64,000 nt of DNA from Patescibacteria group bacterium (GTDB lineage: Bacteria > Patescibacteriota > Minisyncoccia > Phycocordibacterales > WO2-35-19): positions 22,012 through 86,011 of the forward strand of contig JBBTSI010000001.1 of NCBI GenBank assembly GCA_038064735.1. Reading direction: 5' to 3'. Below the pieces are notes generated by a model. The model was not told where the DNA came from. It did not search any database and saw only the letters and a program-made list of their open reading frames with translations. Positions 3,852 through 51,606 of the stretch are shown in pieces. Made by a program: the position numbers and the translations under genes. Numbering within the stretch: position 1 is the first letter of the stretch; each line of letters opens with the position of its first letter.

Positions 3852-3860
3852 AATATATTT

Positions 3861-5192: not shown

Positions 5193-5696
5193 ATGAACGA
5201 AATAAGATTTAATAATCCGATGAGACAGACAGTGCCACTAATTCAAAAAGAGCCAATGGAATTTCCTAAAGAAAAAGAACCAAAGCCAAAAACTCAGCGC
5301 TCATTCAAAAAGTTTTTTATTGTCGTTAGCATTATTTTGCTTTTGACCGCTCTAGTCGTTTTGTTTAAATTTTCCGGAGGTGTCAATTTTTTGACAACAA
5401 ATAATGGTGTCACCAATTTGACTCACAAAGCCGACCCTCTGGCTTCCGATTATTATGCCGTCTTCCTTGCCGATGATCAGGTTTATTTTGGTGAAATTGT
5501 TGAAAACAATACCAATGAAATGACCATGATCAATACTTACCGTATGCAACCTAACGGCCAGACATATTCTTTGGTCAAACTTACTGACGAAGCTTTTGGT
5601 TCCACCAATCAGATTTTCATCAACCGCAGTCAAATATTATTTTATGAACAATTGCGTAAAGACAGTCAGGTAGTTAAACTCATCGAACAGAAGTGA
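5193..5696 (+). CDS. Hypothetical membrane-anchored protein
   Basis: 167-aa ORF with a single TM after a basic N-terminus. Its stop overlaps the GTG start of the next gene (GTGA), suggesting translational coupling. Confidence 0.35.
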   Translation: MNEIRFNNPMRQTVPLIQKEPMEFPKEKEPKPKTQRSFKKFFIVVSIILLLTALVVLFKFSGGVNFLTTNNGVTNLTHKADPLASDYYAVFLADDQVYFGEIVENNTNEMTMINTYRMQPNGQTYSLVKLTDEAFGSTNQIFINRSQILFYEQLRKDSQVVKLIEQK

Positions 5697-9290: not shown

Positions 9291-9328
9291 AACGGCTCAA
9301 CGACGTTAGTCGTTGAGCCGTTTTTGTT
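9291..9328 (+). terminator. Rho-independent terminator after the O-antigen-ligase-like gene
   Basis: Perfect 13-bp stem acggctcaacgac / gtcgttgagccgt with loop gtta, followed by ttttgtt. Confidence 0.6.
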
Positions 9329-20003: not shown

Positions 20004-21194
20004 ATGAAAAAACTTATTCTGATAATTATTTTTGCATTATTTGTATCAATTCCGGAAGCAAAAGCAGTGGTAGTTTTCGAAGATAGTTTTGATGAGCACA
20101 ATGATTGGGAGATGGATACTCAATTAACTTATCCTAATGCAGTTAATTGTTTTCTAGGAAATTGCCCATGGACAAACCAACCACCTTCAGGGTGGACCGT
20201 TGGTCGCATTGGTGGATATATGACTGATGGTGGGTGTTCAAATCCGGGCAACAAATTGATGTATATTGATCAATATGCTGGATACCCAACAGAAACAAAT
20301 AGTTGTAATGGTAGTTCTGGAAAGTGTTTAACTTTTTGGGCGGAATCTTGCGGATCTTCCGCTTTTGATAACTCTGATGGAGATATGGGTTTTGATTTAG
20401 GTTCACCATATCAAGAGTTGTATGTGAGATTTTATATGAAATTTAAAAATGGTTGGCTATGGGGTCAAGGTGGTCAAGGTGGAGGAGATTATCCACAAAT
20501 GAAGCTTGGCCATTATCAGTATTGGGATGGAGTGAGTAATCCTTGGGTATATTTTAATGGTGATATAAATTGGCCAGCAACAGTCCCAGGACTTCAGGGC
20601 TATGACCCAACAGACGGCCATCGTTGGACGCTCGCAGTTAGGCCTTATTGTCACGATAATCATAATTCCAATTGTCGTTATACTGGGACACCAGGTCAAA
20701 CTTGGCTTGGAGAACAAGCTGATGCTTCGGGTTTTATACAAACTGATACGAGTGGAGATTTTTATGCCAGAGGAAATTTCACAGCTTCGAATGCCGGAAT
20801 AATGGATGGTGCGTGGCATCAAGTCACTCTCCGTATAAAAACTAATACTTGGAACGGGAGTTCGTGGAATGCTGATGGAGTTTATCAATTTTGGTTAGAT
20901 GATGTTTTGCAGGTCTCGAGGAGTAATGTGATGTGGTTTGGGACAACCGCTGGTGGCACAGCCGAAAACCCACCCGTCAGAGGTTTTAGATTAATTTCTT
21001 TTGGTGGTAATACCAACAATTATTTCGCTACTTCTGGTACTAATGCTGGAGGAAATAGAGAACAATGGTATTCTTTAGACGATATTATTGTTAGCACTAC
21101 CGCTATCCCAGGTGATTATGTAATAGGTGGTGGCACTCCTCCTCCCGCTGATACCACCGCACCTTCCGCTCCCACCGGCGTTGCGGTACAATAA
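20004..21194 (+). CDS. Secreted ConA/LamG-like jelly-roll protein, paralog P1 of a 5-member tandem family, tail ...GGGTPPPADTTAPSAPTGVAVQ
   Basis: Signal peptide. Family motifs AVVVFEDSFD, CNGSSGKC, LYVRFYMKF, GAWHQVTLRIKTN, DGVYQFWLDDV, EQWYSLDDIIVSTT. Conserved C-terminal tail ends exactly at the stop. Confidence 0.5.
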   Translation: MKKLILIIIFALFVSIPEAKAVVVFEDSFDEHNDWEMDTQLTYPNAVNCFLGNCPWTNQPPSGWTVGRIGGYMTDGGCSNPGNKLMYIDQYAGYPTETNSCNGSSGKCLTFWAESCGSSAFDNSDGDMGFDLGSPYQELYVRFYMKFKNGWLWGQGGQGGGDYPQMKLGHYQYWDGVSNPWVYFNGDINWPATVPGLQGYDPTDGHRWTLAVRPYCHDNHNSNCRYTGTPGQTWLGEQADASGFIQTDTSGDFYARGNFTASNAGIMDGAWHQVTLRIKTNTWNGSSWNADGVYQFWLDDVLQVSRSNVMWFGTTAGGTAENPPVRGFRLISFGGNTNNYFATSGTNAGGNREQWYSLDDIIVSTTAIPGDYVIGGGTPPPADTTAPSAPTGVAVQ

Positions 21195-21242
21195 GATAAA
21201 GATATTTGTAATTTGTTAAATATAAAAATTAAATTAAATAAT

Positions 21243-22925
21243 ATGAAAGATAGAAAATTATTTGTGTTGATGGTAGTGGTGATAGTAACTTTTTCTTTTT
21301 GTCGAGAAGTTTATGCCGGTTCGGCGACTATTTTGTGGAACGCCAATAATGAGTCAGATTTGGTGGGTTACAGGATCTATTATGGAACATCTGCAAGAAC
21401 TGGGGTTAATCCCGGTAGAGGTTCTTATGCTCCACTACCAAAATGTGGCTCATGTGGTTATACCAGTAGCCAAACAGTTATAGGTACCACCTCGTATACT
21501 TTTAATAATTTAACTGACGGTTTGACTTATTATTTTTCTGTTTCTGCTTATGATAATGTGGGCAATGAAAGTAGCTTTTCTCCTGAAGTAAGTAAAAATA
21601 TTCCGGTGGTTGATTCAACTGCTCCAACCATCCCAACCAATCTTTCAGCTACAGCTATATCAAGTTCGGCAATCAATTTAACTTGGACAGCTTCTACCGA
21701 TGCTGTTGGTGTAAGAGAATACAGAATTTATCGTTGTCAAACTTCAAGTTGCATAGCTACGACTCAAATAGGCACCTCAAATGTTAATTCATATTTCAAT
21801 ACTGGTCTTTCTGCTAACACAATGTATAGCTATCGAATCAGGGCTTATGATGCTGTTGGTAATGTAAGTGGTTATTCTTCTGCTGCTAGTGCTACTACCC
21901 AGGCACAGGCTGATGTTACTGCTCCAACCATCCCAACCAATCTTTCAGCTACAGCTATATCTTCATCACAAATCAATCTAACTTGGACTCAATCAACAGA
22001 TAATGTAGGTGTAACAGGTTATAGGATATATAGAAATGGTTCTCAAATAAATACTTCAGCTAACAATTCATACTCTAATACTAATCTTTCTCCAGCAACT
22101 CAATATTCATACACAGTGGTAGCTTATGATGTAGTAGGAAATACTTCAGTTCAGAGCAATCCTGTATCAGCTACAACTCAGTCAGAAATAATCACACCTC
22201 CTCTATCAAATCAACCTTCAACCAAATTTGCACCAGAGCAAAGAGTTCAAACTATATCAAATCTTAATGTTAGAACTTCAGCTTCTGTTTCAGGGACTCT
22301 TTTAGGTAATCAACCTTTAGGTTCTTTGGGAACTATAGTAGGTGAGGGTCAGTTTATTGATGGATATTATTGGTGGAATGTAAATTATGATTCAGGTGTA
22401 GATGGGTGGTCAGTAGAAAATTATCTCATAGGTTATATTACACTTCCTGTTACATCTTCGGATAAATTTGATATAGGTTCAAGGGTTAATACTACAACCA
22501 AACTGAAAGTCAGACTTACTCCAACCATTAAAGGTAAATCTCTTTGTGTTCAGTATAATAATGCTCGTGGAACAGTTATAAGTGGGCCAGTAGTTTCTAA
22601 TGGATATACTTGGTGGAATATAAATTATGATGTTTTTTGTGATGGGTGGAGTGTACAGGATTATCTTTCTTTGATGCCGATTTCCGTCAGTGATTTTATA
22701 GACTATCCTTTATCTAAAGGTTCGAGAGGGGATCAAGTTGGAAATCTCCAAAAATTATTAACCAAACTTGGGTTCTTTAAAGAAGAAATTACGGGATATT
22801 TTGGACCAATTACAGAGACTGCTGTTATGAATTTTCAAGCTGCAAATAATATATCCACCGTTGGTATCGTTGGTCCAAAAACTAAAGCTTTGTTATTAAA
22901 AATGATAGAGGATATAAATTGGTAA
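21243..22925 (+). CDS. Secreted FN3 x3 - SH3b x2 - peptidoglycan-binding domain protein
   Basis: Signal peptide (start taken at MKDRKLF). FN3-like units (SATILWNANNESDLVGYRIYYG; TAPTIPTNLSATAISSS[A/Q]INLTW twice). Two SH3b-like modules (GYYWWNVNYDSGVDGWSVENYL; GYTWWNINYDVFCDGWSVQDYL). C-terminal PG-binding-like domain (GDQVGNLQKLLTKLGFF...GYFGPITETAVMNFQAANN). Two 46-bp exact internal repeats at about 21619 and 21919. Confidence 0.55.
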   Translation: MKDRKLFVLMVVVIVTFSFCREVYAGSATILWNANNESDLVGYRIYYGTSARTGVNPGRGSYAPLPKCGSCGYTSSQTVIGTTSYTFNNLTDGLTYYFSVSAYDNVGNESSFSPEVSKNIPVVDSTAPTIPTNLSATAISSSAINLTWTASTDAVGVREYRIYRCQTSSCIATTQIGTSNVNSYFNTGLSANTMYSYRIRAYDAVGNVSGYSSAASATTQAQADVTAPTIPTNLSATAISSSQINLTWTQSTDNVGVTGYRIYRNGSQINTSANNSYSNTNLSPATQYSYTVVAYDVVGNTSVQSNPVSATTQSEIITPPLSNQPSTKFAPEQRVQTISNLNVRTSASVSGTLLGNQPLGSLGTIVGEGQFIDGYYWWNVNYDSGVDGWSVENYLIGYITLPVTSSDKFDIGSRVNTTTKLKVRLTPTIKGKSLCVQYNNARGTVISGPVVSNGYTWWNINYDVFCDGWSVQDYLSLMPISVSDFIDYPLSKGSRGDQVGNLQKLLTKLGFFKEEITGYFGPITETAVMNFQAANNISTVGIVGPKTKALLLKMIEDINW

Positions 22926-22933
22926 TAACATTA

Positions 22934-23875
22934 ATGAAATTTAAAACTAAAACTAAAATTCTAATTTTTTTGCCAGTTGTCTTTTTCAGTTTTTTCTTGT
23001 TTGCCAATATTTCTTTGGCCGCAATAACTTTTACTGATGGGTTTTGGAATACTTCCTTTGTTGGTTGTACTTCAGGTGATGCCGGTTATGGAGACATTTG
23101 TGATGGTTTGCAAACTGATGATCCGGTTTATGCTTGTACTTCTGGAGGAGCTAATCTCCGTTCTCAAATTACAACTCTGGCTAACTATGCTTCTGGTGCC
23201 GGTTCACAAGGTTATAGATTTTTCCAAGGTGATACACGTAATGAAGATTCATCATCTATGTCTATCAGATTTTCTCCTGTTCAACCAGAAGTTTGGGTTC
23301 GCTATTATACTCGTTACCCCGCTGGTCAAAGTTGGGCGGGAATATTGGAGCATAAAATGATTTATGCTTTTGCTAATGGCGGAGTGGCTATGAATGTTAA
23401 TTTTCCTCAAGGTATGAATAGTATAGGAATAAATCCAAGAGGTACCATGAATAATCCTGATATTTATATAAATGGTTGGGGTTGGAATAATTTATACGGT
23501 AGTGATGTTGGCGACGGTTCTTGGCATCTTTATGAACATCATTTCAAACTAGGCAACAGCGGACAAAATAATGGAGTGTATCAATTTTGGGTTGATGGGA
23601 TAATCCGTGTAAATAGACAAGATATGGACTTTTTCAACGGTGGTGCCGCTAGTCCTACTGGTTGGGATCATATTTATATTCCTTCCAACCATAATGTTTC
23701 CACTTTGGCAGGCTGTAACGGAATTGATGTTGATGATGTGGCAATAGCAGATCCAAATTATGCGAGCTTCATACAAGATGCTGGTGGCAGAAATATGATC
23801 GGTGGGGTAAATTTGTCTCCTCCTCCCCCTGATACCACTGCACCTTCCGCTCCGACAGGTGTTGCGGTACAATAA
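22934..23875 (+). CDS. Secreted jelly-roll protein, paralog P2 (most divergent), tail ...SPPPPDTTAPSAPTGVAVQ
   Basis: Signal peptide MKFKTKTKILIF.... Shares WH...YQFWVDG and the identical C-terminal tail and stop context with P1 and P4. Confidence 0.5.
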   Translation: MKFKTKTKILIFLPVVFFSFFLFANISLAAITFTDGFWNTSFVGCTSGDAGYGDICDGLQTDDPVYACTSGGANLRSQITTLANYASGAGSQGYRFFQGDTRNEDSSSMSIRFSPVQPEVWVRYYTRYPAGQSWAGILEHKMIYAFANGGVAMNVNFPQGMNSIGINPRGTMNNPDIYINGWGWNNLYGSDVGDGSWHLYEHHFKLGNSGQNNGVYQFWVDGIIRVNRQDMDFFNGGAASPTGWDHIYIPSNHNVSTLAGCNGIDVDDVAIADPNYASFIQDAGGRNMIGGVNLSPPPPDTTAPSAPTGVAVQ

Positions 23876-23880
23876 TAACT

Positions 23881-24993
23881 ATGAAAACAAAAAATAAAAT
23901 ATTAATTTGTTTGCCGGTAATATTTTTGGGTTTTTTCTTATTTGCTAATACTTCTAAAGCAGTAGTACTTTTTGAAGATAGTTTTGATTCGCAAGCGGAT
24001 TGGACGAGAGAGCAACCTAATAGTGGGACTGAAAGTTACACTCCTCCTACTGATTGGACTGATGCGTGGCATGAGTCATCTATTTTTACAAAATCATCAA
24101 CATTGGGGACAAAGGGTGAACCTACAATGAGTATTAGAAATGGAGCAGGGTATACCTATGGTGGGACAGGGAAAGCTTTTGTTTATCATCACGAGGCAGG
24201 AGAAGATTCTTTTTGCGCGCCTTTCGAGTGGTGTTCGGATGGCCTAACGGGAAAATCGTTAGTCGGAACTAATTGGACGCAGGGTTATGATGAAATTTAT
24301 ATACGTTTCAGAATGAAATTACAACCAGGATGGCAATGGAAAACATCAACAACTGGATCAATGAAAATGTTGCATGTTAGTCATTATAGTGGTACAGGTT
24401 CGCTTCATGATTTTCATTCATTAAATGAAAATAAACCCCGAATGGTTGCGGTTTTGCAACGAGACGTTGATTGGCAAAGGGTTCGGTTAATGACTCTTGA
24501 TTCTGCTCTGCCACCTATTGCTCCTAGTGAATACTACTATGATCCATATAACCAAGTTTACACTGGAGAAGGTGATCCTGGAGATACACAAGGGTGCCAA
24601 TGGGGCACACAAAACTGTATTCAGGCAGGAGTATGGCACACATATGAATTTCGTTTGAAGATGAATAGTGCTATGGATGTAGCAGATGGTATTATGCAAT
24701 TTTGGGTTGATGGCGTAATGGAAGGATCAAAAACCAATATTAATTGGGTCAGTGAGAACAATGTAGGCGGAGATGCTAATCCAGCGAATTATAGATGGAA
24801 TTATGTTTGGCTGGGTGGCAATAATTATAACGGTTATACTTCGCGTTCTGCTTTAAGTGAACAATGGTACGCTATAGATGATTTTGTTATTTCCACCACT
24901 TATGTCGGTCCTGATTATATAATAGGTGGCGGTACTCCTCCTCCAGTTGACACCACCCCACCTTCCGCTCCCACTGGGGTTGAGGTACAATAA
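23881..24993 (+). CDS. Secreted jelly-roll protein, paralog P3, tail ...IGGGTPPPVDTTPPSAPTGVEVQ
   Basis: Signal peptide MKTKNKILICLPVIF. The first ~40 aa are near-identical to P5 at the nucleotide level. Family motifs GVWHTYEFRLKMNS, DGIMQFWVDGV, EQWYAIDDFVISTTYVGPDYIIGGG. Confidence 0.5.
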   Translation: MKTKNKILICLPVIFLGFFLFANTSKAVVLFEDSFDSQADWTREQPNSGTESYTPPTDWTDAWHESSIFTKSSTLGTKGEPTMSIRNGAGYTYGGTGKAFVYHHEAGEDSFCAPFEWCSDGLTGKSLVGTNWTQGYDEIYIRFRMKLQPGWQWKTSTTGSMKMLHVSHYSGTGSLHDFHSLNENKPRMVAVLQRDVDWQRVRLMTLDSALPPIAPSEYYYDPYNQVYTGEGDPGDTQGCQWGTQNCIQAGVWHTYEFRLKMNSAMDVADGIMQFWVDGVMEGSKTNINWVSENNVGGDANPANYRWNYVWLGGNNYNGYTSRSALSEQWYAIDDFVISTTYVGPDYIIGGGTPPPVDTTPPSAPTGVEVQ

Positions 24994-24998
24994 TAGTG

Positions 24999-26105
24999 AT
25001 GAAATCTAAAATTTTAATTTGTCTAGTTATCTTTTTTGGTTTTTTCTTTTTCGCCAAAAGTTCTTTAGCGGTGGTAATTTTTGAAGATAGTTTTGATTCG
25101 CAAGTGAATTGGACTCGTACTCAATCTCAAAGTCAGGCTTATTCTTGTTACGCCGGCAATTGCAGTTTGCCCACAGGTTGGAGCGCTATTTATGATGGGT
25201 TTACTTATTTGGCGAATAGTTTTAATAATCTTTACTTAAATACGAATGCTGGTTTTCCAAGAACTACTACCGATATTTCTTGCAATGGTGGCTCTGGCAA
25301 ATGTCTAACTTTTTTTGATGAATCAAACATTCAATGTTCACATGATTGTTCTGACGGTAATCTTGGTGTTGATTTAGGTCAGTCGTATAACGAATTATAC
25401 GTGAGATTTCATGTAGCTTTTGAACAAAATTATCAGTGGCAGGATACCAATCCGGGTGAAAAATTTTATCATCTTCAATATTGGGATGGTCCGACCGATT
25501 CGCCTTGGCATTATCACACTTGGAATTCATCTAATACCAAACCATTTGGTATAGGCGGGCTTTTATATTACGGCGGGCATTTATATTATTATGTTGGCTA
25601 CGCGTGCGAAATGAATATAGGTTGTTATGGAAATCCTTCAAGAACTTCTGATGTTCCGGGAGACGAAAACAATATGGATTATATTGATTTAGGAAGTGTA
25701 CAAAATTTGCGTTTGCCGGGGAATTTATTTGATGGGGGGTGGCATAGTTGGGAAATAAATTATAGTTTGAATTCTTCTATCGGCACTTCAGATGGCAAAC
25801 ATAGATTTTGGTTAGATGGTAATTTGATTTATGATTCCAATACTCATAATGGCGGAATTCCTTTTGGAGATGTGGGTGCTCAAGCTAGTCCAAGAAAAGG
25901 TTTTAGATTTTTTGCTCTTGGTGGTAACAATAATAATCTTTGGAATGCTAGTTGTACTGGTACTGATTGCGAACAATGGAGGGCTTTTGATGATGTGGTT
26001 ATTTCCACCACTTATGTCGGTCCTGATTATACAATAGGTGGCGGTACTCCTCCTCCAGTTGACACCACCGCACCTTCCGCTCCCACCGGTGTTGCGGTAC
26101 AATAA
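24999..26105 (+). CDS. Secreted jelly-roll protein, paralog P4, tail ...IGGGTPPPVDTTAPSAPTGVAVQ
   Basis: Signal peptide MKSKILICLVIFF. Motifs CNGGSGKCLTFF, LYVRFHVAF, GGWHSWEINYSLNS, EQWRAFDDVVISTTYVGPDYTIGGG. Confidence 0.5.
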   Translation: MKSKILICLVIFFGFFFFAKSSLAVVIFEDSFDSQVNWTRTQSQSQAYSCYAGNCSLPTGWSAIYDGFTYLANSFNNLYLNTNAGFPRTTTDISCNGGSGKCLTFFDESNIQCSHDCSDGNLGVDLGQSYNELYVRFHVAFEQNYQWQDTNPGEKFYHLQYWDGPTDSPWHYHTWNSSNTKPFGIGGLLYYGGHLYYYVGYACEMNIGCYGNPSRTSDVPGDENNMDYIDLGSVQNLRLPGNLFDGGWHSWEINYSLNSSIGTSDGKHRFWLDGNLIYDSNTHNGGIPFGDVGAQASPRKGFRFFALGGNNNNLWNASCTGTDCEQWRAFDDVVISTTYVGPDYTIGGGTPPPVDTTAPSAPTGVAVQ

Positions 26106-26110
26106 TAACT

Positions 26111-27202
26111 ATGAAAACAAAAAATAAAATATTAATTATTTCGTTCCCAATATTCATTAGTTTTTTCTTATTTGCTAATACTTCTAAAGCAGTAGTACTT
26201 TTTGAAGACAGTTTTGATTCGCAAGCAGATTGGACTTCGGCTCAATCTACAAGTGTTTCTGTTTCTGATTACAACGGTGGATTTTTTGGAAACTGGACTG
26301 GGTTTAATAATGCTTTAACACAATGTGGCGCCGGAATAACAGGCAGGCCAGGATATAATAACTTTTATGTTAGTAGCATAGCGGGCTATCCAATAGGGGC
26401 AGAAACATGCAATGGGGGTAGTGGAAAATGTTGGACTAAATGGCAGGAGGCTTGCTTAGCACCTGCTGGTAATTTTGATGATGCTGATGCAAATTTGGGA
26501 TATGATTTGGGTCAAGAATATTCAGATATTTATTTGCGCTTCTATATTAAATTTCCCACATCATTTTCCATTATAGATGGTCAGGCTTTCAAGCTTTATC
26601 ATGTGCAACATTATAATGGCGGATTTACCAATCCCTGGAACTACTTTGGTCGGGATACAAACAATCAACCTGTTGTTTCTGGAGGAATAAGACGAGATGC
26701 GGATGTAGGCCGTATTGATTTTTATACAGAAGCCAGAGGGTATTCAAATTATTATACTCACGGTTTTATGTTTTGGCCTATTTCAACTTATGAAATAGCA
26801 AAAGCTGGGGGCGGGATTTTTGATGGCGCTTGGCATTCTATAGAAATCAGGGTTAAAGCTAATAGTGTTATAAATACAGCCGATGGTTTAATTGAAGTGT
26901 GGGTAGATGGTAGTAAACTTTCACATTGGCAAGATTATCCAGCAGAAGATATCAACTTTACAAACTCTGATAATGATCTTCGGGGATTCAGATTTCTCTC
27001 GGTGGGGGGCAATAATATGTCATGGACCACTGCCTGCTCGGATGGCAGTGGAAATATGGCTGAATGTGAACAGTGGTATGCTATCGACGATGTGGTCTTT
27101 TCCACTACTTATGTTGAACATAGTTATGTAATAGGTGGTGGCACCCCTCCTCCCGCTGACACCACCCCACCTTCTGCTCCCACTGGGGTTGAGGTACAAT
27201 AG
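26111..27202 (+). CDS. Secreted jelly-roll protein, paralog P5, tail ...IGGGTPPPADTTPPSAPTGVEVQ
   Basis: The 5' end (MKTKNKILI...NTSKAVVLFEDSFDSQADWT) is nucleotide-identical to P3 over about 130 bp. Motifs CNGGSGKCWTKW, IYLRFYIKF, GAWHSIEIRVKANS, EQWYAIDDVVFSTTYVEHSYVIGGG. Confidence 0.5.
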   Translation: MKTKNKILIISFPIFISFFLFANTSKAVVLFEDSFDSQADWTSAQSTSVSVSDYNGGFFGNWTGFNNALTQCGAGITGRPGYNNFYVSSIAGYPIGAETCNGGSGKCWTKWQEACLAPAGNFDDADANLGYDLGQEYSDIYLRFYIKFPTSFSIIDGQAFKLYHVQHYNGGFTNPWNYFGRDTNNQPVVSGGIRRDADVGRIDFYTEARGYSNYYTHGFMFWPISTYEIAKAGGGIFDGAWHSIEIRVKANSVINTADGLIEVWVDGSKLSHWQDYPAEDINFTNSDNDLRGFRFLSVGGNNMSWTTACSDGSGNMAECEQWYAIDDVVFSTTYVEHSYVIGGGTPPPADTTPPSAPTGVEVQ

Positions 27203-30768: not shown

Positions 30769-30775
30769 AAAACAA

Positions 30776-30870
30776 AAATTGCCCAGAAAAGCTTCTCTCC
30801 CAAAAGTCCTCGGGTCTCCTTGTTGCACAGGCCAGACTTTTGTCGAGAACTTTTCTGGGCAATTTTTCTG
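30776..30870 (+). terminator. Nested-stem terminator-like structure between the S41 peptidase and rplI
   Basis: Outer ~15-bp stem attgcccagaaaag...cttttctgggcaat encloses an inner 8-bp stem caaaagtc...gacttttg, then tttttct. Confidence 0.4.
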
Positions 30871-30885: not shown

Positions 30886-31329
30886 ATGAAAGTCATATTA
30901 AAAAAAGATATAAAAGGAGTGGGGAAGAAATATGAAGTGAAAAATGTGGCTGACGGTTATGCTGTCAATTTCCTTATACCTAACAAGTTGGCTGAATACG
31001 CTTCTCCGGAAGCAGTCAAAGCAGCCGAGCTTTTAAAAGCGACTATGACAGCAGAGATAGAAATAAGAGAGGAACTCACCAAAAAACAGATTGAAATGCT
31101 GAAAGAAGTGAAGATTGTATTGAATAAAAAAAGCAACGAAAAAGGCCATTTGTTTGAAAAAATTCACTCAGAAGAAATATCAGAAGCTCTGAAAGAACAA
31201 GCCAAAATTGAAATAACTCCAGACTTTTTGGTTATTGAAAAACCCATCAAAGAAATAGGGGAGCATATTGTCATTGCCCAAGTCGGCAAAAATAAAGCTG
31301 AGTTTAAAGTGGTGGTTGAAGCTTTCTAA
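30886..31329 (+). CDS. rplI: 50S ribosomal protein L9
   Basis: [36 protein letters not shown] is the canonical L9 N-domain. 148 aa after moving the start to the internal Met. Confidence 0.85.
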
Positions 31330-31367
31330 CTAGTTTAAAAATTCTTTCTCGTCATAAGTTTAAAAAT

Positions 31368-31426
31368 GCACGGATATTTTCTTGCTAGAAAATTCCTCGT
31401 GCTCGCTTCAGTCAAGCTCGCAAGGC
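31368..31426. repeat. 59-nt intergenic repeat element, copy 1 (second copy at 43696..43754)
   Basis: gcacggatattttcttgctagaaaattcctcgtgctcgcttcagtcaagctcgcaaggca, near-identical to the copy between mraY and ftsW. Confidence 0.6.
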
Positions 31427-31455
31427 ATTTTAAAACTTACGACCACGACGAATTT

Positions 31456-31728
31456 TTAAACTACACTAGCGACTTTTTTGGTGACGGTAGTGCCGTCGAA
31501 GTGAACTTTTCTTTTGGAAGACATTTTGACTTTGCCATCTTTGAGAGCGAAAAGGGTATAATCTCGGCCTTGTCCGACACCGTTACCTGGGATTACTTTT
31601 GAGCCTCTTTGGCGCACGATAATAGAGCCCACTTGGCAGGTGCTTCCATCTGAGAGCTTAATACCCAAGTATTTTGGATTTGAATCTCTTCCGTTTTTAG
31701 TTGTTCCGGCGGCTTTTTTATGGGCCAT
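31456..31728 (-). CDS. rpmA: 50S ribosomal protein L27
   Basis: [24 protein letters not shown]...GSIIVRQRG is the canonical L27 sequence. 90 aa. Confidence 0.9.
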
Positions 31729-32356: not shown

Positions 32357-32920
32357 ATGCCACCAGAAATAAATACAAATCCACAACCTGTACCTGAATC
32401 AAAACCTCCGGTAATACCTCAAACAACACTCCCAACCAAAAATTTATTCAAAAAACCGGTTTTTCTATTATCTGTAATTCTGATCATTTTGATTGCTGTT
32501 GGTTTTGTAGGTCTTTTAAAATATAAACCTAGTGAATCTAAAAAAGAATTTGATTCAAAAAATCTCTTTGTTCGACAGGCTGAAAATGGGAAAGTTATTG
32601 AAGCTGTTCCACTTGGCTTGATAGTAGATGAAGAAGCACTAATATTAGCTTCATCAGAAAGAGCTTCTAGTCATTCAAGTTACCAAACTTTTGTTACCTC
32701 ATATAAGACTAAACTATCTCAAAAAGATTTAGAAAGTAAATATCAGGATTTTATCAAAAAAAATAATTTTAAAGTTATTAATGTTGCTACTAGTACAAAA
32801 TCTAGTTTTTCAATTTCTGCGATTTCTGAAGAGTCTAGCGAATCATTTTTTGTTAATTTGACTCGGTTGGATGATCAGCAAAATAGTATTGTTATGATTA
32901 TTTTTAATAAAAAGAAATGA
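32357..32920 (+). CDS. Hypothetical membrane-anchored protein
   Basis: Pro-rich N-terminus and a single TM. No recognisable domain. Its stop overlaps the next start (ATGA). Confidence 0.3.
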   Translation: MPPEINTNPQPVPESKPPVIPQTTLPTKNLFKKPVFLLSVILIILIAVGFVGLLKYKPSESKKEFDSKNLFVRQAENGKVIEAVPLGLIVDEEALILASSERASSHSSYQTFVTSYKTKLSQKDLESKYQDFIKKNNFKVINVATSTKSSFSISAISEESSESFFVNLTRLDDQQNSIVMIIFNKKK

Positions 32921-34542
32921 AAAAATCACTATTAATTATATTTTCTCTCATAATTTTGTTCAGTTTTATCTCCAAAGTTGAAGCTTTTCGTGATATTCCT
33001 GCTGTTCCTATACCTTATCCAGTTAGCTTCGAATTGGAAGCGAATTGTACTTCTGGTTTTGAACCTACTTGTTTTGCTCTATTTGATTCACTGAATATAG
33101 CTTTTTCTTCTACCTTCAGTTTATATGAAGACATATTTGGTAAAGAATATGTTTCTTCTAATTCTATACCATTGCCAGTACCTTCTCCGTTTATATACGT
33201 TTACGGTAGTGATATTGTTCCCTCTGGATTTGGATATTACACTGATCAGTATAACGTTTTTATGTCATTTGATGCTGCTGAAAATGATTATGGCAATACT
33301 ACTCCTATGACAATATATTCACCAAAGACTACCTCTCAAGATATAGGAAATCTGAATTGTTGGAATGAATGCACCGGATTTCCTTCAAATAGTAAATATT
33401 GCGGTTCACCAAGTACTTGGCAAGTTTATTCAAGGACAGTTTCGTCTCCTCCTTCTCGACAAATATCCTGTAGTTATTTAAATGGTGGTGTTGGTTATGG
33501 GTTCCTTGATACTGTTACTAGTAATGTTCTTGTTACTCTTTGTGAATTCGGTGTCCCTCTTGGCAATCAACGTTGCCCTGATTTTCCAAGTATAACTGCT
33601 CCAGTTTCGGTAACCACAGGCACTGCTGCTAATATTTCTTGGGCTGTTCAAAATACTAGATTGCCAGGTGATTTATCAGACTTTATCTCTAGTTGCAAAG
33701 TAACTTCTTCACCGAATGTTGGAGAATGGACAGCTCTTTCTGGTAGCGCTGCTCCAGTTTTAAATGCTGATACAACCTTTACTCTAACTTGTACTAACAA
33801 GTTCGGGAGAGATTTTCTTCCTAAACCTACTAGGACGGTGACGGTGACAGCACCTGTTGCAATAAATGGTTCTTGTGGTGCCACCGAAAATCTTTGTACT
33901 GCTGGCACTCCTAATGATATAGCTGATAATGCTACACATTATTTATGGCAGTGTTTGGGTGAAAACGGTGGTATTGGTGCCAGTTGTAGTTTGGTTAAAC
34001 CTGTTCCTCCTCCTATTACTTATGATCTTAGGGTCACTTCTTCAGTATCTAGCAATGTCCCTATGGTGGTCGTGCCTGGCAATGACGGTTCTACTACATT
34101 TACTAATACTTATAACAACAATACCCCTGTTGTTGTAACTGCTCCCGCTACAGCTTCGGGTAACAACTTTTCTAATTGGAACGGTTGCATTTCTTCTTTT
34201 GGGACAACTTGCAACGTAACTATGGATTCTAACAAAACCATTACGGCTGTTTATACTCCTCCAAATGTCAGTGTTTCAGTGGTTGTGAAGACGGCATACG
34301 GAGTAGTCAAAAGTGATATTGGTGGTATAGATTGCGGGACCACTTGTAGTGCTTCGTATCCTCCCGGCACTGTTATCACACTTACCGAATATCCTAATCC
34401 AAAAAGAATATTTAAAGAATGGAGTGGAGTCACATGTAGTGGCTTAGGGGAGACCCAAAGAACTCCAAAATGCACATTTACAGTCAATGGCCAAACTGTC
34501 TATGCTGACTTTACCATAGACCCAAGTTATGTAGAGTTTTAA
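32917..34542 (+). CDS. Large secreted Cys-rich protein, paralog A, with C-terminal InlB-B-repeat-like (GxDCGxxCxxxYxxGTxVxLT...W.G..C) domain
   Basis: Signal peptide MKKSLLIIFSLIILFSFISKVEAF. Central CEFGVPLGNQRCPDFPSITAPVSVTTGTAANISW. C-terminal SDIGGIDCGTTCSASYPPGTVITLTEYPNPKRIFKEWSGVTC...VYADF. Confidence 0.5.
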   Translation: MKKSLLIIFSLIILFSFISKVEAFRDIPAVPIPYPVSFELEANCTSGFEPTCFALFDSLNIAFSSTFSLYEDIFGKEYVSSNSIPLPVPSPFIYVYGSDIVPSGFGYYTDQYNVFMSFDAAENDYGNTTPMTIYSPKTTSQDIGNLNCWNECTGFPSNSKYCGSPSTWQVYSRTVSSPPSRQISCSYLNGGVGYGFLDTVTSNVLVTLCEFGVPLGNQRCPDFPSITAPVSVTTGTAANISWAVQNTRLPGDLSDFISSCKVTSSPNVGEWTALSGSAAPVLNADTTFTLTCTNKFGRDFLPKPTRTVTVTAPVAINGSCGATENLCTAGTPNDIADNATHYLWQCLGENGGIGASCSLVKPVPPPITYDLRVTSSVSSNVPMVVVPGNDGSTTFTNTYNNNTPVVVTAPATASGNNFSNWNGCISSFGTTCNVTMDSNKTITAVYTPPNVSVSVVVKTAYGVVKSDIGGIDCGTTCSASYPPGTVITLTEYPNPKRIFKEWSGVTCSGLGETQRTPKCTFTVNGQTVYADFTIDPSYVEF

Positions 34543-34583: not shown

Positions 34584-37235
34584 ATGAAAAAAACTCTTCT
34601 AATTATATTTTGTCTCATAATTTTATTAGGCTTCATACCTAAAGCCGAAGCCTTTTATACCGTATCAAATGGAGCTATTGAATATCCTGCAGATTTAGAT
34701 TTATCAGACCCAAGTGCAATGGATCAAGTGATTAGATTTTTATCTTGTGCTTCTGGTTTTGAAAGTGTATGTCTTTCTTTACAGCAGGATTTATTTAGTG
34801 CAGTGTTGAATAGGTTTAATCAATATTATGATATTTTCTACAATTTTGGGAGAGGATATTGGACTGATAGGTACTATGTTATGAGGTCATTTGATGCTGC
34901 TGATGCTGATATCGGTAATCCGACTGTAATGGATCCTTATTCCTCAGAAGCTTTAATGACACCTACAAGTTGTAGTCAGGGTAGTGAATGTAGTAATTTA
35001 CCTTATTTAGGTAATGCTTGTGGTTCTTGGCCTAATCAATCTCTGGGATTTACAAGAATACCTGGTCTTACCAGAAGTATGGATTGTACAACTCTTGGTG
35101 GTGGTGTTGGTCATGCCATGACTGATGTTTATATAGGAATGGTTCCCGTTACCACTTGTGAATTTGGTGTACCTTTAGGTAACAGAAGATGCCCTAATTT
35201 ACCAGATATAAATGGTCCAGCTTCAGTGCCTTCTGGTACTACTGCAACTATTTCTTGGACTACTGAAGATAGTTTTCTGCCAGATAGTTTATTAAGATTT
35301 ATTAATAATTGTACCGTTACTTCTTCTCCTTTTGTTGGGAATTGGTCTGGACTTTCAGGAACTCAATCACCAGTTTTAAATGCTAATACAACCTTCACTT
35401 TAACTTGTACCAGTAATCTTCCAAGTGGAACTCCTTTTATAAAATCTAAAACGGTAAATGTCACCGCTCCCGTCACCGTCTCTGTCACCGCCACCACTCC
35501 ATACAACACCACTCCTAGTACCAATGTGCTATTTGCATATGTACCCACTACCAATACCGGTACAACTGAATGCAGACTTTTGGACAATGTTTCCTCTCCT
35601 TTAACCGCATATCAAGCTGGCAGTCCAATCACATATTCTTCACCTAGTGCAGTGGGTTCATATGGATATTATGTGCAGTGTCGGAATACAGTGACCACTT
35701 CAGCTATTGGAACTTCAAATTTAATTACGGTGAATACAGCTTGTTTAGCTGGTAGTGATTTTGTAGCCGGAGCTTGTCGAGTGAGACCAACTATCACTGC
35801 TTCAACAGGGGCCAATGGATCAGTGATTCCAAGTGGAGTATCAACTGTAGTTTATGGTTCCAATCTAACATATACCATTACTCCAAGTGCCGGATATCAA
35901 GTGGCTAATGTTTTAGTTGACGGCAGTTCAGTGGGCACAGTGGGCACATATACTTTTTCTAATATTATCGCTAACCATACAATCAGCGCTACCTTCACAG
36001 CTTCAGCTTGTGCTAACGGAGCCACTAACCCTCCAACTTGTACCACTTGTGTAGCTGGTTCAGCCATAATCGCGGGGATATGTACTCCCGTCACCGTCTC
36101 TGTCACCGCCACCACTCCATACAACACCACTCCTAGTACCAATGTGCTATTTGCATATGTACCCACTACCAATACCGGTACAACTGAATGCAGACTTTTG
36201 GACAATGTTTCCTCTCCTTTAACCGCATATCAAGCTGGCAGTCCAATCACATATTCTTCACCTAGTGCAGTGGGTTCATATGGATATTATGTGCAGTGTC
36301 GGAATACTACTTATACAACTATTACAGGGAATTCTGGATTGATTACTGTTAATGTTGCTTTAGCTCCAGTTGCCCCTTCTGTCACCGATTCCCCAGCTAC
36401 TTCCATAACAACTTCTAGTGCTGTTTTAAATGCTGAAGTCACTTCTCTTGGAGTTCCTGCTTCTTCCATCTCAGCTCGAGGTATTTGTTACAGCACCAGT
36501 CCTTCTCCAAGTTTACTTAATGGAGCTAACTGTAATATTAATGGGGCGGTAACCCTAGGAGCATTTACTAGAGCTATAGCTGGTCTGACTTCTGGTACTA
36601 CTTATTATTATCGTGGATATGCTACTAATGGAACTGGTACTGGATATTCTGCAGGTGGATCGTTTACTTCTAATGTAGCTGTTACTACATACAATCTTCA
36701 AATTAATTCTCTTACTCCTGGTTCTGGTGTTTCTATGACTGTTGTACCTGTTGATAGAATTGGTAATGCTGATGGCTCTACCGCATTTACTCGCACCTAT
36801 AACAATAATACTTCTGTTTTTGTCACAGCTCCTGCCACTGCTCCTGGGGGTAATAATTTCTCTAATTGGGGTGTTACTGATTGTAATTCTATTACGGGTA
36901 CTTATACTTGTGAAGTTATTATGAATGGTCCCAAAATTATTAGAGCTGTTTATGCTTCTCCTAATGTTTCTCTAAATGTTGTCGTAAAAACGGCACACGG
37001 AAGAGTAACAAGCGATAGTGGTGGCATAGATTGTGGGACCACTTGTGTTGCTTCATATCCTCCTAATACTGTTGTTATACTTACCGAAACACCAAACGCC
37101 AATAGAAAATTTTGGAGATGGAGAGGGCCCATTTGTAATGAGGGTAATCAAACATCAACAACTTGCACGTTTATTGTTGCTGGTCAAACTGTGTATGCAG
37201 ACTTTGCTATAAGTCCTGGTTATAAAGAGTTCTAG
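34584..37235 (+). CDS. Large secreted Cys-rich protein, paralog B (883 aa), with exact internal duplication and the same C-terminal domain
   Basis: Signal peptide MKKTLLIIFCLIILLGFIPKAEAF. Shares CEFGVPLGNRRCPNLPDINGPASVPSGTTATISW and the C-terminal SDSGGIDCGTTCVASYPPNTVVILTETPNANRKFWRWRGPIC...VYADF domain with paralog A. Confidence 0.5.
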   Translation: MKKTLLIIFCLIILLGFIPKAEAFYTVSNGAIEYPADLDLSDPSAMDQVIRFLSCASGFESVCLSLQQDLFSAVLNRFNQYYDIFYNFGRGYWTDRYYVMRSFDAADADIGNPTVMDPYSSEALMTPTSCSQGSECSNLPYLGNACGSWPNQSLGFTRIPGLTRSMDCTTLGGGVGHAMTDVYIGMVPVTTCEFGVPLGNRRCPNLPDINGPASVPSGTTATISWTTEDSFLPDSLLRFINNCTVTSSPFVGNWSGLSGTQSPVLNANTTFTLTCTSNLPSGTPFIKSKTVNVTAPVTVSVTATTPYNTTPSTNVLFAYVPTTNTGTTECRLLDNVSSPLTAYQAGSPITYSSPSAVGSYGYYVQCRNTVTTSAIGTSNLITVNTACLAGSDFVAGACRVRPTITASTGANGSVIPSGVSTVVYGSNLTYTITPSAGYQVANVLVDGSSVGTVGTYTFSNIIANHTISATFTASACANGATNPPTCTTCVAGSAIIAGICTPVTVSVTATTPYNTTPSTNVLFAYVPTTNTGTTECRLLDNVSSPLTAYQAGSPITYSSPSAVGSYGYYVQCRNTTYTTITGNSGLITVNVALAPVAPSVTDSPATSITTSSAVLNAEVTSLGVPASSISARGICYSTSPSPSLLNGANCNINGAVTLGAFTRAIAGLTSGTTYYYRGYATNGTGTGYSAGGSFTSNVAVTTYNLQINSLTPGSGVSMTVVPVDRIGNADGSTAFTRTYNNNTSVFVTAPATAPGGNNFSNWGVTDCNSITGTYTCEVIMNGPKIIRAVYASPNVSLNVVVKTAHGRVTSDSGGIDCGTTCVASYPPNTVVILTETPNANRKFWRWRGPICNEGNQTSTTCTFIVAGQTVYADFAISPGYKEF
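35467..35689 (+). repeat. 223-bp exact in-frame direct repeat, copy 1 (copy 2 at 36085..36307)
   Basis: The nucleotide string ctcccgtcaccgtctctgtcaccgccaccactccatacaac...gtgcagtgtcggaatac is identical at both positions. It encodes PVTVSVTATTPYNTTPSTNVLFAYVPTTNTGTTECRLLDNVSSPLTAYQAGSPITYSSPSAVGSYGYYVQCRNT twice. Confidence 0.85.
36085..36307 (+). repeat. 223-bp exact in-frame direct repeat, copy 2
   Basis: Identical to 35467..35689, offset 618 bp. Confidence 0.85.
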
Positions 37236-41384: not shown

Positions 41385-42518
41385 TTATTCCAAATTTTCG
41401 TGAGAATAGACAATAGCGAGAAGTTCACGAGCTATGGTGTTAGCGGCGCCGGGTTTGAAGAAATCTTTGGCTCCGGCCTGCATTTTTTCACTGAGTTCTT
41501 TGCTCTCTATTATTCTTTTTATTTCGGAGAGGAATATGTGGGATTTCAGATTTTCCTCTTGCAAGACGCTACAAGCACCACTCCCGGCATAAGCGAAAGC
41601 GTTTTTGACCTGATGATCGGCATTTGAATCGGTTATAGGGATTATGATAGAAGGTTTTTGCCAAGAAGCGATTTCAAATATAGTTGAACCGCCTCGGCTT
41701 ATCACTAGAGAGGCGATACCGGCTGCCATCCTCATTTCTAAGCTATTTAAATATCCGAAAGTTTTGTAGCGTTTTTTGTACGGGTTTTCGAGAAGTACAG
41801 CATCGGCAGATTCTTCCATTACTTTTTTATTTAATGGACCCGTTTGGTGTATGATTTGAAAATTTTTCACTAACTCCGGCAAAATATCCAACACAGCATT
41901 GTTTATGAGTTCTGCTCCTTGCGAACCACCCATTATAAATATAGTTGGAATACTGGTATCAAAACCAAAAAACTCTCCAGCTTCGTTTGTGATAGGAGTT
42001 AATCTTTCTTCTAATATCGGTTGCCCAGTATGGACTACTTTGTTAGCTGGAAAATAAGTAGCCGCTTCTTCATAAGAGACAGCTACTCGAGTGGCAAATT
42101 TGCCGGCCCATTTGTTGACTCTCCCAGGGGCAGAATCAGACTCATGGACGAATACTGGGATACGCAAAAGACGAGCGGCCAAAACCACGGGGAAACTGCC
42201 GTATCCTCCTTTGCTGAAAACTACATCGGGGAATATATCAAAAACATCAAATAAAGCACCCAAACAACCCCAAGCCATTTTGAAAAAGTCGGTAAAATTT
42301 AAAAGAGAAAAATATCGGCGCATTTTCCCGGCGGTAATTTTTTTGAAGGTTATATTGTGGTCATAAAGCAAACCCTGGTTGTATGGTGATGGAGCACAAA
42401 AAAACATTTCTGGACTCAAAAGTTTTTTCTCTTTTGAAATTTTTTGGATTGATTCGACTACGGCAATGATTGGATAAAAGTGTCCACCCGTTACTCCGCC
42501 CGTAAATATTATTTTCAT
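41385..42518 (-). CDS. murG: UDP-GlcNAc:lipid I N-acetylglucosaminyltransferase MurG
   Basis: MKIIFTGGVTGGHFYPIIAV N-terminus, GT28 two-domain pattern, GGSQGA. Follows ftsW as in dcw clusters. Confidence 0.85.
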   Translation of the reverse strand: MKIIFTGGVTGGHFYPIIAVVESIQKISKEKKLLSPEMFFCAPSPYNQGLLYDHNITFKKITAGKMRRYFSLLNFTDFFKMAWGCLGALFDVFDIFPDVVFSKGGYGSFPVVLAARLLRIPVFVHESDSAPGRVNKWAGKFATRVAVSYEEAATYFPANKVVHTGQPILEERLTPITNEAGEFFGFDTSIPTIFIMGGSQGAELINNAVLDILPELVKNFQIIHQTGPLNKKVMEESADAVLLENPYKKRYKTFGYLNSLEMRMAAGIASLVISRGGSTIFEIASWQKPSIIIPITDSNADHQVKNAFAYAGSGACSVLQEENLKSHIFLSEIKRIIESKELSEKMQAGAKDFFKPGAANTIARELLAIVYSHENLE

Positions 42519-42527
42519 TTATTTAAT

Positions 42528-43649
42528 TTAACTCTTAGCTTTTAACCTTTTACTGTTTCTCGATATACTCATCACTATGCCGGCTTCAATCAAGGTGATG
42601 AATAGGGCCGTACCACCATGACTGACGAATGGCAGGGGGATGCCAGTTAACGGCAGGATTCCTATCATACCCCCAATATTCACAAATGCTTGTGACACTA
42701 TAAGTATAACAATTCCTAAAGACACAAGTCTACCAAAGTCATCACCAGCCCTCAGGGATATTTTGAGACCTTCCAAACCAAACATGACGAAAATAGCCAT
42801 TATAATAAATGCTCCAAAAAAACCGAATTCTTCTGCAGCCACTGCGAAGACCGAGTCGCCAATGGGCTCTGGTAGGTAGTGAAATTTTTGAATACTTTGG
42901 CCGAATCCCCTGCCCCAAATTTGCCCGGAACCTACTGCTATAAGTGATTGGTTGAGCTGGTAACCGCTGGTTTGATCATTGGCTACTGGGTGGAGCATAA
43001 TATCTATTCTTTGTTTTATATAAGGTCTGGTTAAATAAAGTACGGCTAAAACCGCTATGCCGGCAATAATTATGGCTCCTATGTGCCGCCATTTTGCTCC
43101 CGAAACTATGTACATTGAAAGAGCTGCGAAAATGATAACAGCGAAAGTATCAGTATCGGGTTGGGCTAGAAGTATGGCTCCCAATATTCCAGAAAATATA
43201 GTAAAAGGTAAAAGACCCCAAGAAAAAGTACCAACTTTGTCTTTGATACTTGATAGCCAAGCGGCGAAATACATTATAAAAGCAATTTTAAGAATTTCTG
43301 CAGGTTGGAAAGATGGCAAAGGACCTAAGTCGATCCAACGTTTGGCGCCGCCGTGTTCCATGCCAATGCCGGGCACGAAAACTAAAAGAGTGAGTATGAC
43401 AGAACCGATGAAAAAAAAGAAAGAATATTTTTTCCAAACATGGTAATCAATTTTGGCGAAAAATATGCAAGCAATAGATCCGAAAAACAGGCCATAAAAA
43501 ATCTGGTTGAAAGCGACGCTGGAAAATTCAACTTCATTTCGGGCCAACAGTCCGAGCGATGCCGAGCTGAAAATGAAAAATCCGCCAACAACCAAAACAA
43601 TAGTCCAAAACAAAAATATCCTGTTTATTTTACCAAGTTTGGCCGCCAT
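42528..43649 (-). CDS. ftsW: SEDS family peptidoglycan glycosyltransferase FtsW/RodA
   Basis: About 10 TM helices, conserved NPGTDQ-like loop and GGTA...G motif. Sits between mraY and murG. Confidence 0.8.
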   Translation of the reverse strand: MAAKLGKINRIFLFWTIVLVVGGFFIFSSASLGLLARNEVEFSSVAFNQIFYGLFFGSIACIFFAKIDYHVWKKYSFFFFIGSVILTLLVFVPGIGMEHGGAKRWIDLGPLPSFQPAEILKIAFIMYFAAWLSSIKDKVGTFSWGLLPFTIFSGILGAILLAQPDTDTFAVIIFAALSMYIVSGAKWRHIGAIIIAGIAVLAVLYLTRPYIKQRIDIMLHPVANDQTSGYQLNQSLIAVGSGQIWGRGFGQSIQKFHYLPEPIGDSVFAVAAEEFGFFGAFIIMAIFVMFGLEGLKISLRAGDDFGRLVSLGIVILIVSQAFVNIGGMIGILPLTGIPLPFVSHGGTALFITLIEAGIVMSISRNSKRLKAKS

Positions 43650-43695
43650 GGTTTTATTTTAACATAACAAAACATAAAATAGCTTCTTTCGCTTT

Positions 43696-43754
43696 GCACG
43701 GATATTTTTCTGCTGAAAAATTCCTCGTGCTCGCTTCAGTCAAGCTCGCAAGGC
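43696..43754. repeat. 59-nt intergenic repeat element, copy 2 (between mraY stop and ftsW start, where murD would normally lie)
   Basis: gcacggatatttttctgctgaaaaattcctcgtgctcgcttcagtcaagctcgcaaggca: differs from copy 1 only by small indels and substitutions in the 5' half. Confidence 0.6.
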
Positions 43755-43777
43755 ACACTCAAGAACTATTTTATGTT

Positions 43778-44857: not shown

Positions 44858-44874
44858 GATTATAATAATAACAT

Positions 44875-51560: not shown

Positions 51561-51606
51561 AAAGGCCCAAAACAAACTATAGAAGTTTGTTTTGGGCCTT
51601 TTTTAT
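51561..51606. terminator. Bidirectional rho-independent terminator between convergent genes
   Basis: aaaggcccaaaacaaac-tatagaa-gtttgttttgggccttt: a 17-bp stem flanked by an A-run 5' and a T-run 3'. Confidence 0.7.

Follow-up and report, generated by a model that had tools for sequence, protein, structure and literature searches.

The stretch of Patescibacteria DNA analysed here (the window, 64,000 nt in full length) carries a pair of 61-nt repeats, at 31367-31427 and 43695-43755, which are identical at 57 of 61 positions (93%) and form repeat family D17 of the window. Copy 1 lies in the gap between the convergent genes rplI and rpmA, and copy 2 lies between mraY and ftsW (Table 1). Gene names at both copies were taken from the Pfam labels of syntenic relatives. 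These are the two contexts given in a first-pass annotation, made from the sequence alone, which had reported a 59-nt sequence present twice. The repeat is slightly longer than described there, and its 3' half, called invariant, is a segment of 33 nt that is identical in both copies. This segment has exactly two matches in the window at up to three mismatches, and none was obtained in 100 shuffles.

The two copies are equal in length and differ by four substitutions (31381, 31382, 31387, and 31388), through which C-G and U-A pairs are replaced by U-A and C-G pairs inside one stem, P3. The compensatory change that had been claimed for a hairpin (ggaatttt-loop-aaaatatcc) is thus present as two compensatory pair swaps, and the minus-strand hairpin in question is P3; the extra T matched by an extra A that was part of the claim is absent. 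The loops, which had been described as different (cagcag and ctagcaag), are the same 4-nt loop AGCA (minus strand) in both copies. The earlier reading had overlooked the long inverted repeat around each copy. Each 61-nt repeat is the apex of a longer hairpin of 115-135 nt, and the arms of the two hairpins are unrelated to each other. At copy 1, the inverted repeat (I1) has arms of 39 nt at 31331-31369 and 31425-31463 that are 85% complementary, and the unit occupies the whole gap between the stop codons of rplI and rpmA. The minus strand of copy 1 folds at -53.4 kcal/mol (z = -7.8), compared with -41.2 kcal/mol for the plus strand; the corresponding values for copy 2 are -41.2 and -31.7 kcal/mol, and the z-scores of the window copies range from -5 to -8. 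Both copies are in sense orientation at the 3' ends of minus-strand genes.

A covariance model (CM) built from 90 copies of the family found only these two copies in the window, and its next-best matches (up to 15 bits) were plain terminator-like hairpins. Plain 14-bp hairpins followed by a T-run were seen at 9291-9324 and 51563-51601, where they match the P1 part of the model weakly. They are probably the ordinary terminators of this genome, resembling P1 stems without the core.

Table 1. Coordinates of the repeat units, their structural parts and the flanking genes in the window
Feature	Position	Strand	Description
rplI	ends 31329, stop 31327-31329	+	convergent with rpmA, flanks copy 1
rpmA	ends 31456, stop 31456-31458	-	convergent with rplI, flanks copy 1
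Copy 1, whole unit (P1 + core)	31331..31463	-	inverted repeat I1, fold, CM 95.3 bits
Copy 1, P1 5' arm	31426..31463	-	overlaps last codons and stop of rpmA
Copy 1, three-way-junction core	31369..31425	-	5'-CCUUG CGAGC..GCGAGCA CGA GGAAUUUU..AAAAUAUCC GUG-3'
Copy 1, P2	31400..31422	-	UGC / tandem G.A / GCUU - loop GACUG - AAGC / G.A / GCA
Copy 1, P3	31372..31396	-	GGA-AUUUUCU-AGCA-AGAAAAU-[A]-UCC, bulged A; contains the four variable positions
Copy 1, P1 3' arm	31331..31368	-	subfamily-B internal-loop motif GAGAAA opposite GUCGUG
ftsW	42528-43649	-	flanks copy 2
Copy 2, whole unit	~43666-43782	-	subfamily A arms AAAUAGUUCUUGAG... / ...GAAAGAAGCUAUUUU; includes mraY stop; CM 75.4 bits
Copy 2, core	43697..43753	-	P3 43700-43724, P2 43728-43750
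mraY	43778-44857, stop codon 43778-43780	-	flanks copy 2

Other repeats were noted in the same window. A second, different palindromic element is located at 30772-30866, between an S41 peptidase gene and rplI, with 500 nt separating it from copy 1; both strands of this ~95-nt hairpin fold (-48 to -50 kcal/mol). Its core, GUCCUCGGGU-hairpin-CCAGAC, occurs twice in locus L040 and makes up the TsaD-site insert of locus L139. With this second core, the window genome holds at least two families of such palindromic elements. A perfect direct repeat of 223 nt (35467-35689 and 36085-36307) lies in an 883-aa ORF (34584-37235) that has no Pfam match, and the ORF at 32917-34542 has an N-terminus in common with it (families D15 and D16). 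A tandem array of four to five paralogous ~370-aa genes, also with no Pfam match, extends over 20004-27202 (D1, D3, D6, and D10-D14), and two paralogous proteins with fn3 and PG_binding_1 domains are encoded 9.3 kb apart (11984-13405 and 21213-22925). A Pif1-like helicase with a C-terminal HTH_40 domain is encoded at 53478-55145 (-).

Structure, covariation and distribution of the family

Units of the family are ~85-180 nt long and consist of a long stem, P1, whose sequence is subfamily- or copy-specific, and a conserved apex of ~57 nt that forms the three-way junction P1/P2/P3. In P2, U-G-C and a tandem G.A lie below an apical stem of 4 bp with the loop GAC(U)G; P3 is a 10-bp stem in which one A is bulged and which ends in the loop AGCA. 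The junction has fixed nucleotides: P1 and P2 are joined by U, P2 and P3 by CGA, and P3 and P1 by G(U)G. None of the 90 sequences varies at C43, G44, A45, A67, U72, or G73. Within subfamilies A and B, too, the outer arms differ from copy to copy, and conservation peaks at the centre. The idea that the two subfamilies represent orthologous loci was ruled out, as L103, a member of subfamily B, sits upstream of mraY.

Covariation was assessed in two alignments. In the alignment of 90 sequences (A1), in which P3 was fixed by the search pattern, standard pairs were present in 95.5% of cells versus 72.9% in shuffles, and the covariation score was 0.608 versus 0.168 in shuffles and at most 0.145 in slid controls. 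Double changes affected 14 of 15 pairs of P1 and all four apical pairs of P2, which are 99% paired. The closing pair of P2, U-A, alternates with A-U (16/90 sequences), and its tandem G.A / A.G is kept in 87/90 and 85/90. In the CM alignment (A2), which includes divergent members and, being fitted to the model, leans towards structure, double changes were found at all 32 pairs, and all ten pairs of P3 covary with 99.3% paired. In one member the whole P3 stem is exchanged for a G+C-rich one that retains the bulged A and the AGCA loop. The view that the changes between the two window copies are those of a selected structure was strongly reinforced by these alignments of the family.

Several known motifs were considered for the core and rejected. 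A resemblance of GAGCACG...CGUGC to group II domain V was ruled out, and the U-A/A-U covariation supports P2 instead. A K-turn reading of the G.A pairs lacks the 3-nt bulge, leaving a plain tandem G.A only, and hammerhead and other ribozyme cores gave no fit either by eye or with Rfam.

The fold is specific to one strand. Mismatches in P1 comprise 62 G.U versus 15 A.C and 52 G.A/A.G versus 5 C.U/U.C, and when P1 was evaluated alone, the folding strand of the core was the more stable one in 87 of 112 copies (p = 1.6e-8). At 55 of 83 loci the folding strand is the one richer in C, so that the mismatch bias opposes the local base composition. Selection therefore acts on one particular strand in its single-stranded form, and the data fit RNA and ssDNA alike; strong covariation by itself does not identify an RNA gene.

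The prospect of further copies in relatives was borne out by pattern searches, which themselves favour copies with conserved cores. Thirteen loci matched a 21-mer from P2; they are spread over six Patescibacteria MAGs (Wildermuthbacteria, Zambryskibacteria, and unclassified), with up to five per genome, and the 21-mer also matched Erythrobacter once, by chance. A P3-anchored pattern matched no fewer than 120 loci in metagenomes, whose sources were groundwater, peat, and lake sediments; five gut matches were unrelated and were left out. In total, more than 130 relatives were collected, all of them from Patescibacteria MAGs or environmental metagenomes, and the covariance model, run over the 650 kb of loci that were fetched, yielded 126 matches, many of them diverged types, at a density of as many as five in 13 kb. 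The closest named relatives of the window genome are Zambryskibacteria. No match to the element was obtained among viral contigs (searched with two patterns) or by phage and plasmid BLAST, and there is thus no sign of a phage or plasmid origin. The Rfam models at gathering threshold identified one tRNA in the whole window and no family at either copy; at E <= 10, region 31300-31500 gave only spurious miRNA/sRNA hairpin matches of up to 19 bits, and no family of Rfam release 15 was matched there (including terminators, riboswitches, hammerhead, twister, pistol, hatchet, HDV-like, and group I/II introns). A tRNA/tmRNA scan found nothing at the two sites, and no description of this element was found in the literature searched. 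The family is widespread in CPR bacteria and apparently undescribed. Seven metagenome or MAG contigs begin or end inside an element (L013, L014, L033, L074, L094, L099, and L126), which suggests that it breaks short-read assemblies.

Insertion sites within genes and at gene junctions

At least 19 copies lie in frame in 11 Pfam-confirmed gene families, namely TsaD, Fmt, IscS-like desulfurase, PheT, MnmA, Dus, KsgA, RsmE, UvrD, MPG, and PMT_2 glycosyltransferase (loci L005, L011, L016, L031, L053, L059, L066, L072, L080, L086, L089, L097, L104, L113, and L129 among them). All are stop-free, the frame is kept open in 19 of 19, and four reading frames are used, with 12 copies in sense and seven antisense to the host mRNA (e.g., L005, L053, L066, L086, and L137). 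In TsaD, Fmt, and IscS, one and the same site holds copies of opposite orientation in different organisms. Of 22 pairs of co-directional genes next to a copy, none proved to be a split gene. The insert lengthens annotated proteins, TsaD, Fmt, and PheT among them, by 28-45 residues; in an AlphaFold model of TsaD with the insert, the overall pLDDT was 84 and that of the insert 40-53, as expected if the predicted peptide is a tolerated surface excursion. Most of these hosts handle tRNA or rRNA (TsaD, MnmA, Dus, Fmt, PheT, KsgA, RsmE, and IscS), UvrD and MPG also bind nucleic acid, and the PMT_2 glycosyltransferase is the exception; this skew may reflect only the gene content of small CPR genomes. 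The fmt insert of L011 is far longer than the others and has the repeated peptide blocks NFDRSSLKGSH ... NFDSSSLKGSH around the core, a sequence pattern that suggests nested or stepwise-extended palindromes.

One copy (L036, 5767-5853, +) is located within a 23S rRNA gene (2807-6471, -) and is antisense to the rRNA. It forms part of a hairpin of ~190 nt in the apical loop of helix 25, at position 583/584 of the Rfam LSU model, in a gene that is ~740 nt longer overall than the model. The helix-25 loop is the classic site of intervening sequences (IVS) in 23S rRNA.

The state of individual sites was compared between relatives. In the TsaD loop, 120 homologues include empty, full, inverted, 5'- or 3'-truncated, and decayed alleles, the decayed ones carrying substitutions and in-frame indels; truncated copies remain in frame, and unrelated palindromic inserts also occupy the loop. 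The TsaD insert is a unit of 84 nt that consists of 14-nt arms (AGTG.../...CACT) and the core, is flanked by AAAAT and ATTTC, and has no direct repeat; its orthologous copies show arm covariation inside the coding sequence.

At the two window sites, the relatives have either a short spacer or overlapping genes, which makes both copies lineage-specific states of otherwise conserved gene junctions. The mraY-ftsW spacer is 128 nt here versus 17-46 nt in relatives whose MraY is 83-89% identical and whose gene order is the same (ScpA-ScpB-PBP5-MraY-FtsW-MurG-GltX), and the covariance model found no element at the relatives' mraY-ftsW loci. One relative (L140) retains only a homologue of the 3' arm, a remnant that fits an ancient insertion with later loss equally well as a recent gain. 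The first-pass annotation had pointed out that copy 2 sits where murD lies in canonical clusters; this is a coincidence, for relatives with 83-89% identical MraY have neither murD nor the element. The order PBP5-like - mraY - ftsW - murG - gltX, with no murD between mraY and ftsW, was observed both in the window (41385-45834) and in the relatives L140-L142, and no Mur-ligase ORF was present among the 30 large window ORFs scanned. The genes rplI and rpmA overlap tail to tail in two relatives, by 4 and 26 nt, and their stops are 126 nt apart here; the formerly overlapping ends are now separate, and TTTAAA is found at both ends of the unit, although TTTAAA is itself palindromic.

Intergenic copies occur with all four arrangements of neighbouring genes relative to the folding strand: (-,-) 31, (+,-) 19, (-,+) 15, and (+,+) 14. 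The folding strand is antisense to adjoining genes in a ratio of ~1.6:1. Many copies start within ~30-40 nt of a gene end, some lie between tRNA genes, and 2.55 of six frames are open in intergenic copies versus 1.34 in shuffles. Five adjacent pairs of different subtypes, 21-42 nt apart, are all arranged head-to-head (L049, L056, L068, L081, and L082), typically between convergent genes, each copy being antisense to the gene whose 3' end adjoins it. The orientation bias and the head-to-head pairs hint at an interaction with transcription. A replication-strand cause of the orientation was also considered, but the trends are opposite: among intergenic copies 14 are sense and 31 antisense, and among copies in coding sequence 12 are sense and 7 antisense. 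A linked enzyme was sought by clustering 718 flanking ORFs, which returned housekeeping families only and no recurrent partner or transposase-like neighbour, and Pfam analysis of 30 large window ORFs gave no transposase, reverse transcriptase, integrase, or MurD. No conserved promoter-like flank or promoter signature accompanies the copies, and their flanks are unrelated to each other.

A probable selfish palindromic repeat and the alternatives

The two segments are probably the cores of a non-autonomous, dispersed palindromic repeat of Patescibacteria (CPR) that is selfish DNA of the kind represented by the Rickettsia palindromic elements (RPE). The features of that class were found here, with a dispersed multi-copy palindrome of ~100-150 nt and in-frame, stop-free insertions at tolerant sites. 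We infer mobility from the dispersal of copies at unrelated sites, their presence or absence at orthologous sites, the occurrence of subfamilies across unrelated loci, and the decay series. A single-stranded intermediate is implied by the strand-specific fold, and the element would spread, or have spread, through it, ssDNA being favoured and an RNA intermediate being possible. The junction would be the module recognised by an enzyme that acts in trans and has its gene elsewhere in the genome, and the long inverted arms would let the unit flip in place. Such flipping would be the simplest explanation of both orientations at one site, the alternative being repeated site-specific insertion. Copies inside genes would sit in loops of essential proteins and be translated, and effects on neighbouring genes would be a by-product. 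By analogy, P3 with its extrahelical base and fixed flanks recalls the substrates of HUH/Y1 transposases, which may serve as a lead. No transposition event, clear target-site duplication, or partner enzyme was identified in the 64-kb window and the locus fragments of up to 15 kb.

What is new is the host group and the architecture, in which a conserved branched apex is carried on variable or covarying arms. RPEs, reportedly described by Ogata et al. in 2000 and 2002, are said to be hairpin-forming repeats of ~100-150 nt in a reduced genome, which reportedly occur both in intergenic regions and in frame in essential protein genes and RNA genes and are translated as surface insertions; we know of no linked transposase or mechanism of spread for them. 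The present element is likewise ~100-150 nt, palindromic, dispersed, and found both between genes and in frame in essential genes. The likeness is one of class; the hosts belong to another phylum, and none of the matches listed came from Rickettsia. In RPEs the whole unit is the consensus, whereas here only the apex is conserved and the arms covary or are copy-specific; in addition, one-strand asymmetry and same-site flipping are documented for the CPR element.

Bacterial MITEs (Correia/NEMIS, ERIC, RUP, BOX, and others) are recognised by terminal inverted repeats that are conserved, by target-site duplications, and by a parent IS. The element resembles them in being short, non-autonomous, multi-copy, and hairpin-forming, often located at gene ends and sometimes fused to ORFs. 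It differs from them in that its termini are the least conserved part, no clear target-site duplication was seen, and no parent element was found among 718 flanking and 30 window ORFs. A conserved centre with variable ends is the opposite of ordinary MITEs, and we know of no established mechanism for such a layout. Elements of the REP/REPIN-RAYT type and those derived from IS200/IS605 have a one-strand hairpin with an extrahelical base and a single-copy HUH/Y1 enzyme acting in trans; REPs are 20-40 nt, G+C-rich, and marked by a GTAG or CGTC tag. Of the three readings offered at first, a REP-like element came closest, in that this is a dispersed multi-copy palindromic repeat with a strand-specific hairpin, an extrahelical base, and fixed flanking nucleotides. 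It is not of REP size and lacks the GTAG/CGTC tag, the module being 57 nt long, branched, and set in a long A+T-rich stem, and no RAYT or TnpA was identified. In integron attC and CTX-phi attP sites, the structure of the stem is conserved rather than its sequence, one strand is used, and extrahelical bases matter; all of this is shared with the element. The attC sites have a variable apex and conserved R/L boxes at the base, whereas the element is reversed, with a conserved apex, and has no integrase or cassette context. One member lies in a ~190-nt helix-25 hairpin like the IVSs of 23S helices 25 and 45, although this is one context among many for the element and the core is antisense to the rRNA. 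In-frame long inverted repeats in protein-coding genes, with both arms translated, are described for Nematomorpha mitochondrial genes (PMC6649704). That system differs in being organellar and eukaryotic, and the abstract of that paper reports no conserved apical module.

The presence of only two copies in the 64-kb window would agree with a chance or local duplication of a 61-nt segment, the outcome that the first-pass annotation had tied to the existence of two copies only and their lack in relatives. Half of this was found, since close relatives are empty at these sites, yet more than 130 covarying copies occur in other organisms and none is expected by chance; the duplication is refuted, and empty sites combined with more than 130 copies elsewhere are the pattern of a mobile repeat. 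A host cis-acting RNA, co-transcribed with its neighbouring gene as a terminator, attenuator, mRNA stabiliser, or RNase III site, would suit the very stable, covarying hairpins right after stop codons, many of them within ~30-40 nt of the gene end, and the sense position of both window copies at minus-strand 3' ends; long duplexes are also substrates of RNase III. It is nevertheless distinctly improbable, given the use of all four neighbour orientations with the folding strand more often antisense, the copies within ORFs in both orientations at one site, the antisense copy in 23S rRNA, and the close relatives that have the same gene junctions without the element. Compared with an intrinsic terminator, the window hairpins are long (115-135 nt), A+T-rich, and topped by a 57-nt branched apex, and the canonical signature of a short G+C-rich hairpin with a T-run is present at neither copy; the shared terminator or attenuator of the initial proposal founders on these same points. 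In favour of a family of small RNA genes (~90-140 nt), each transcribed independently, one might cite the covarying three-way junction, whose loops and junction bases are conserved as they are in many functional RNAs, and a folding strand that is often antisense to flanking genes and would need its own promoter. No conserved promoter-like flank accompanies the copies, the flanks are unrelated, no Rfam family matches, many copies lie within ORFs and one in rRNA, and up to five copies of several diverged types occur in 13 kb. The small RNA, the third of the initial proposals, is therefore very improbable, with its contexts arguing against it as they do for the terminator.

Removal from RNA, either as a mini-intron or as an IVS excised by RNase III, would use P1 for joining the flanks, which it does bring together, and would agree with the one copy placed exactly in the helix-25 loop and with a junction conserved enough to be catalytic or protein-bound. 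Introns removed from RNA impose no constraint on frame or stop codons. The in-gene copies are open in frame in 19 of 19, no gene is split by an out-of-frame copy, the truncated TsaD copies remain in frame, some copies are antisense, and no ribozyme or intron model matches at E <= 10. With no split genes and with in-frame truncated copies, the intron is excluded, and the explanation as a whole is scarcely credible. A DNA site domesticated by the host for chromosome organisation, replication/repair, recombination, or DNA uptake has a slim chance of being correct; such roles have been proposed for REP elements. The extreme conservation of the core and of unpaired nucleotides (six invariant in 90/90), the high copy density, the orientation bias with local GC skew, and a strand-specific fold compatible with ssDNA would all be in keeping with it. 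Against it stand the copies that decay and vanish freely at orthologous sites, their absence from close relatives, the lack of regularity in their positions, and the insertion in essential coding sequence, which is hard to square with host design. The core is near-invariant across lineages with host proteins only 60-80% identical, which could reflect purifying selection at the host level rather than recent spread. This near-invariance, the conserved centre, the copy-specific stems, the antisense bias, and the head-to-head pairs are not explained by selfish spread and keep host-function readings alive.

It is also possible, if unlikely, that a new class of structure-dependent elements has this junction as its functional module, or that the fold has been domesticated by the host for a genome-wide function. 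As such a module, the junction would be recognised, or even be catalytic, only as a folded single strand, and it would target palindrome centres and hairpin loops, namely hairpins at gene ends, the loop of helix 25, and copies of itself that were already in place. Its stem would grow as the flanks are copied in inverted form, and this would account for the conserved centre and the copy-specific ends. A candidate for templated inverted copying of host flanks at copy 1 (TAGTTTAA/TTAAACTA, including the rpmA stop) was suggestive and weak, because TTTAAA is palindromic.

Under the preferred reading, that of an RPE-like selfish palindromic repeat, the finding bears on how repeats of the RPE type invade the essential genes of reduced genomes, for which, to our knowledge, no explanation has emerged in 25 years. 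The question becomes tractable with hundreds of copies that share a sharply defined, covarying, strand-specific module and with a natural series of empty, full, inverted, and decayed alleles. The partner enzyme could be revealed by co-occurrence profiling, and at 57 nt the junction is of a size that suits biochemistry. In CPR genomics, the consequences of the element are broken assemblies, longer annotated proteins, and a contribution to unusual rRNA insertions.
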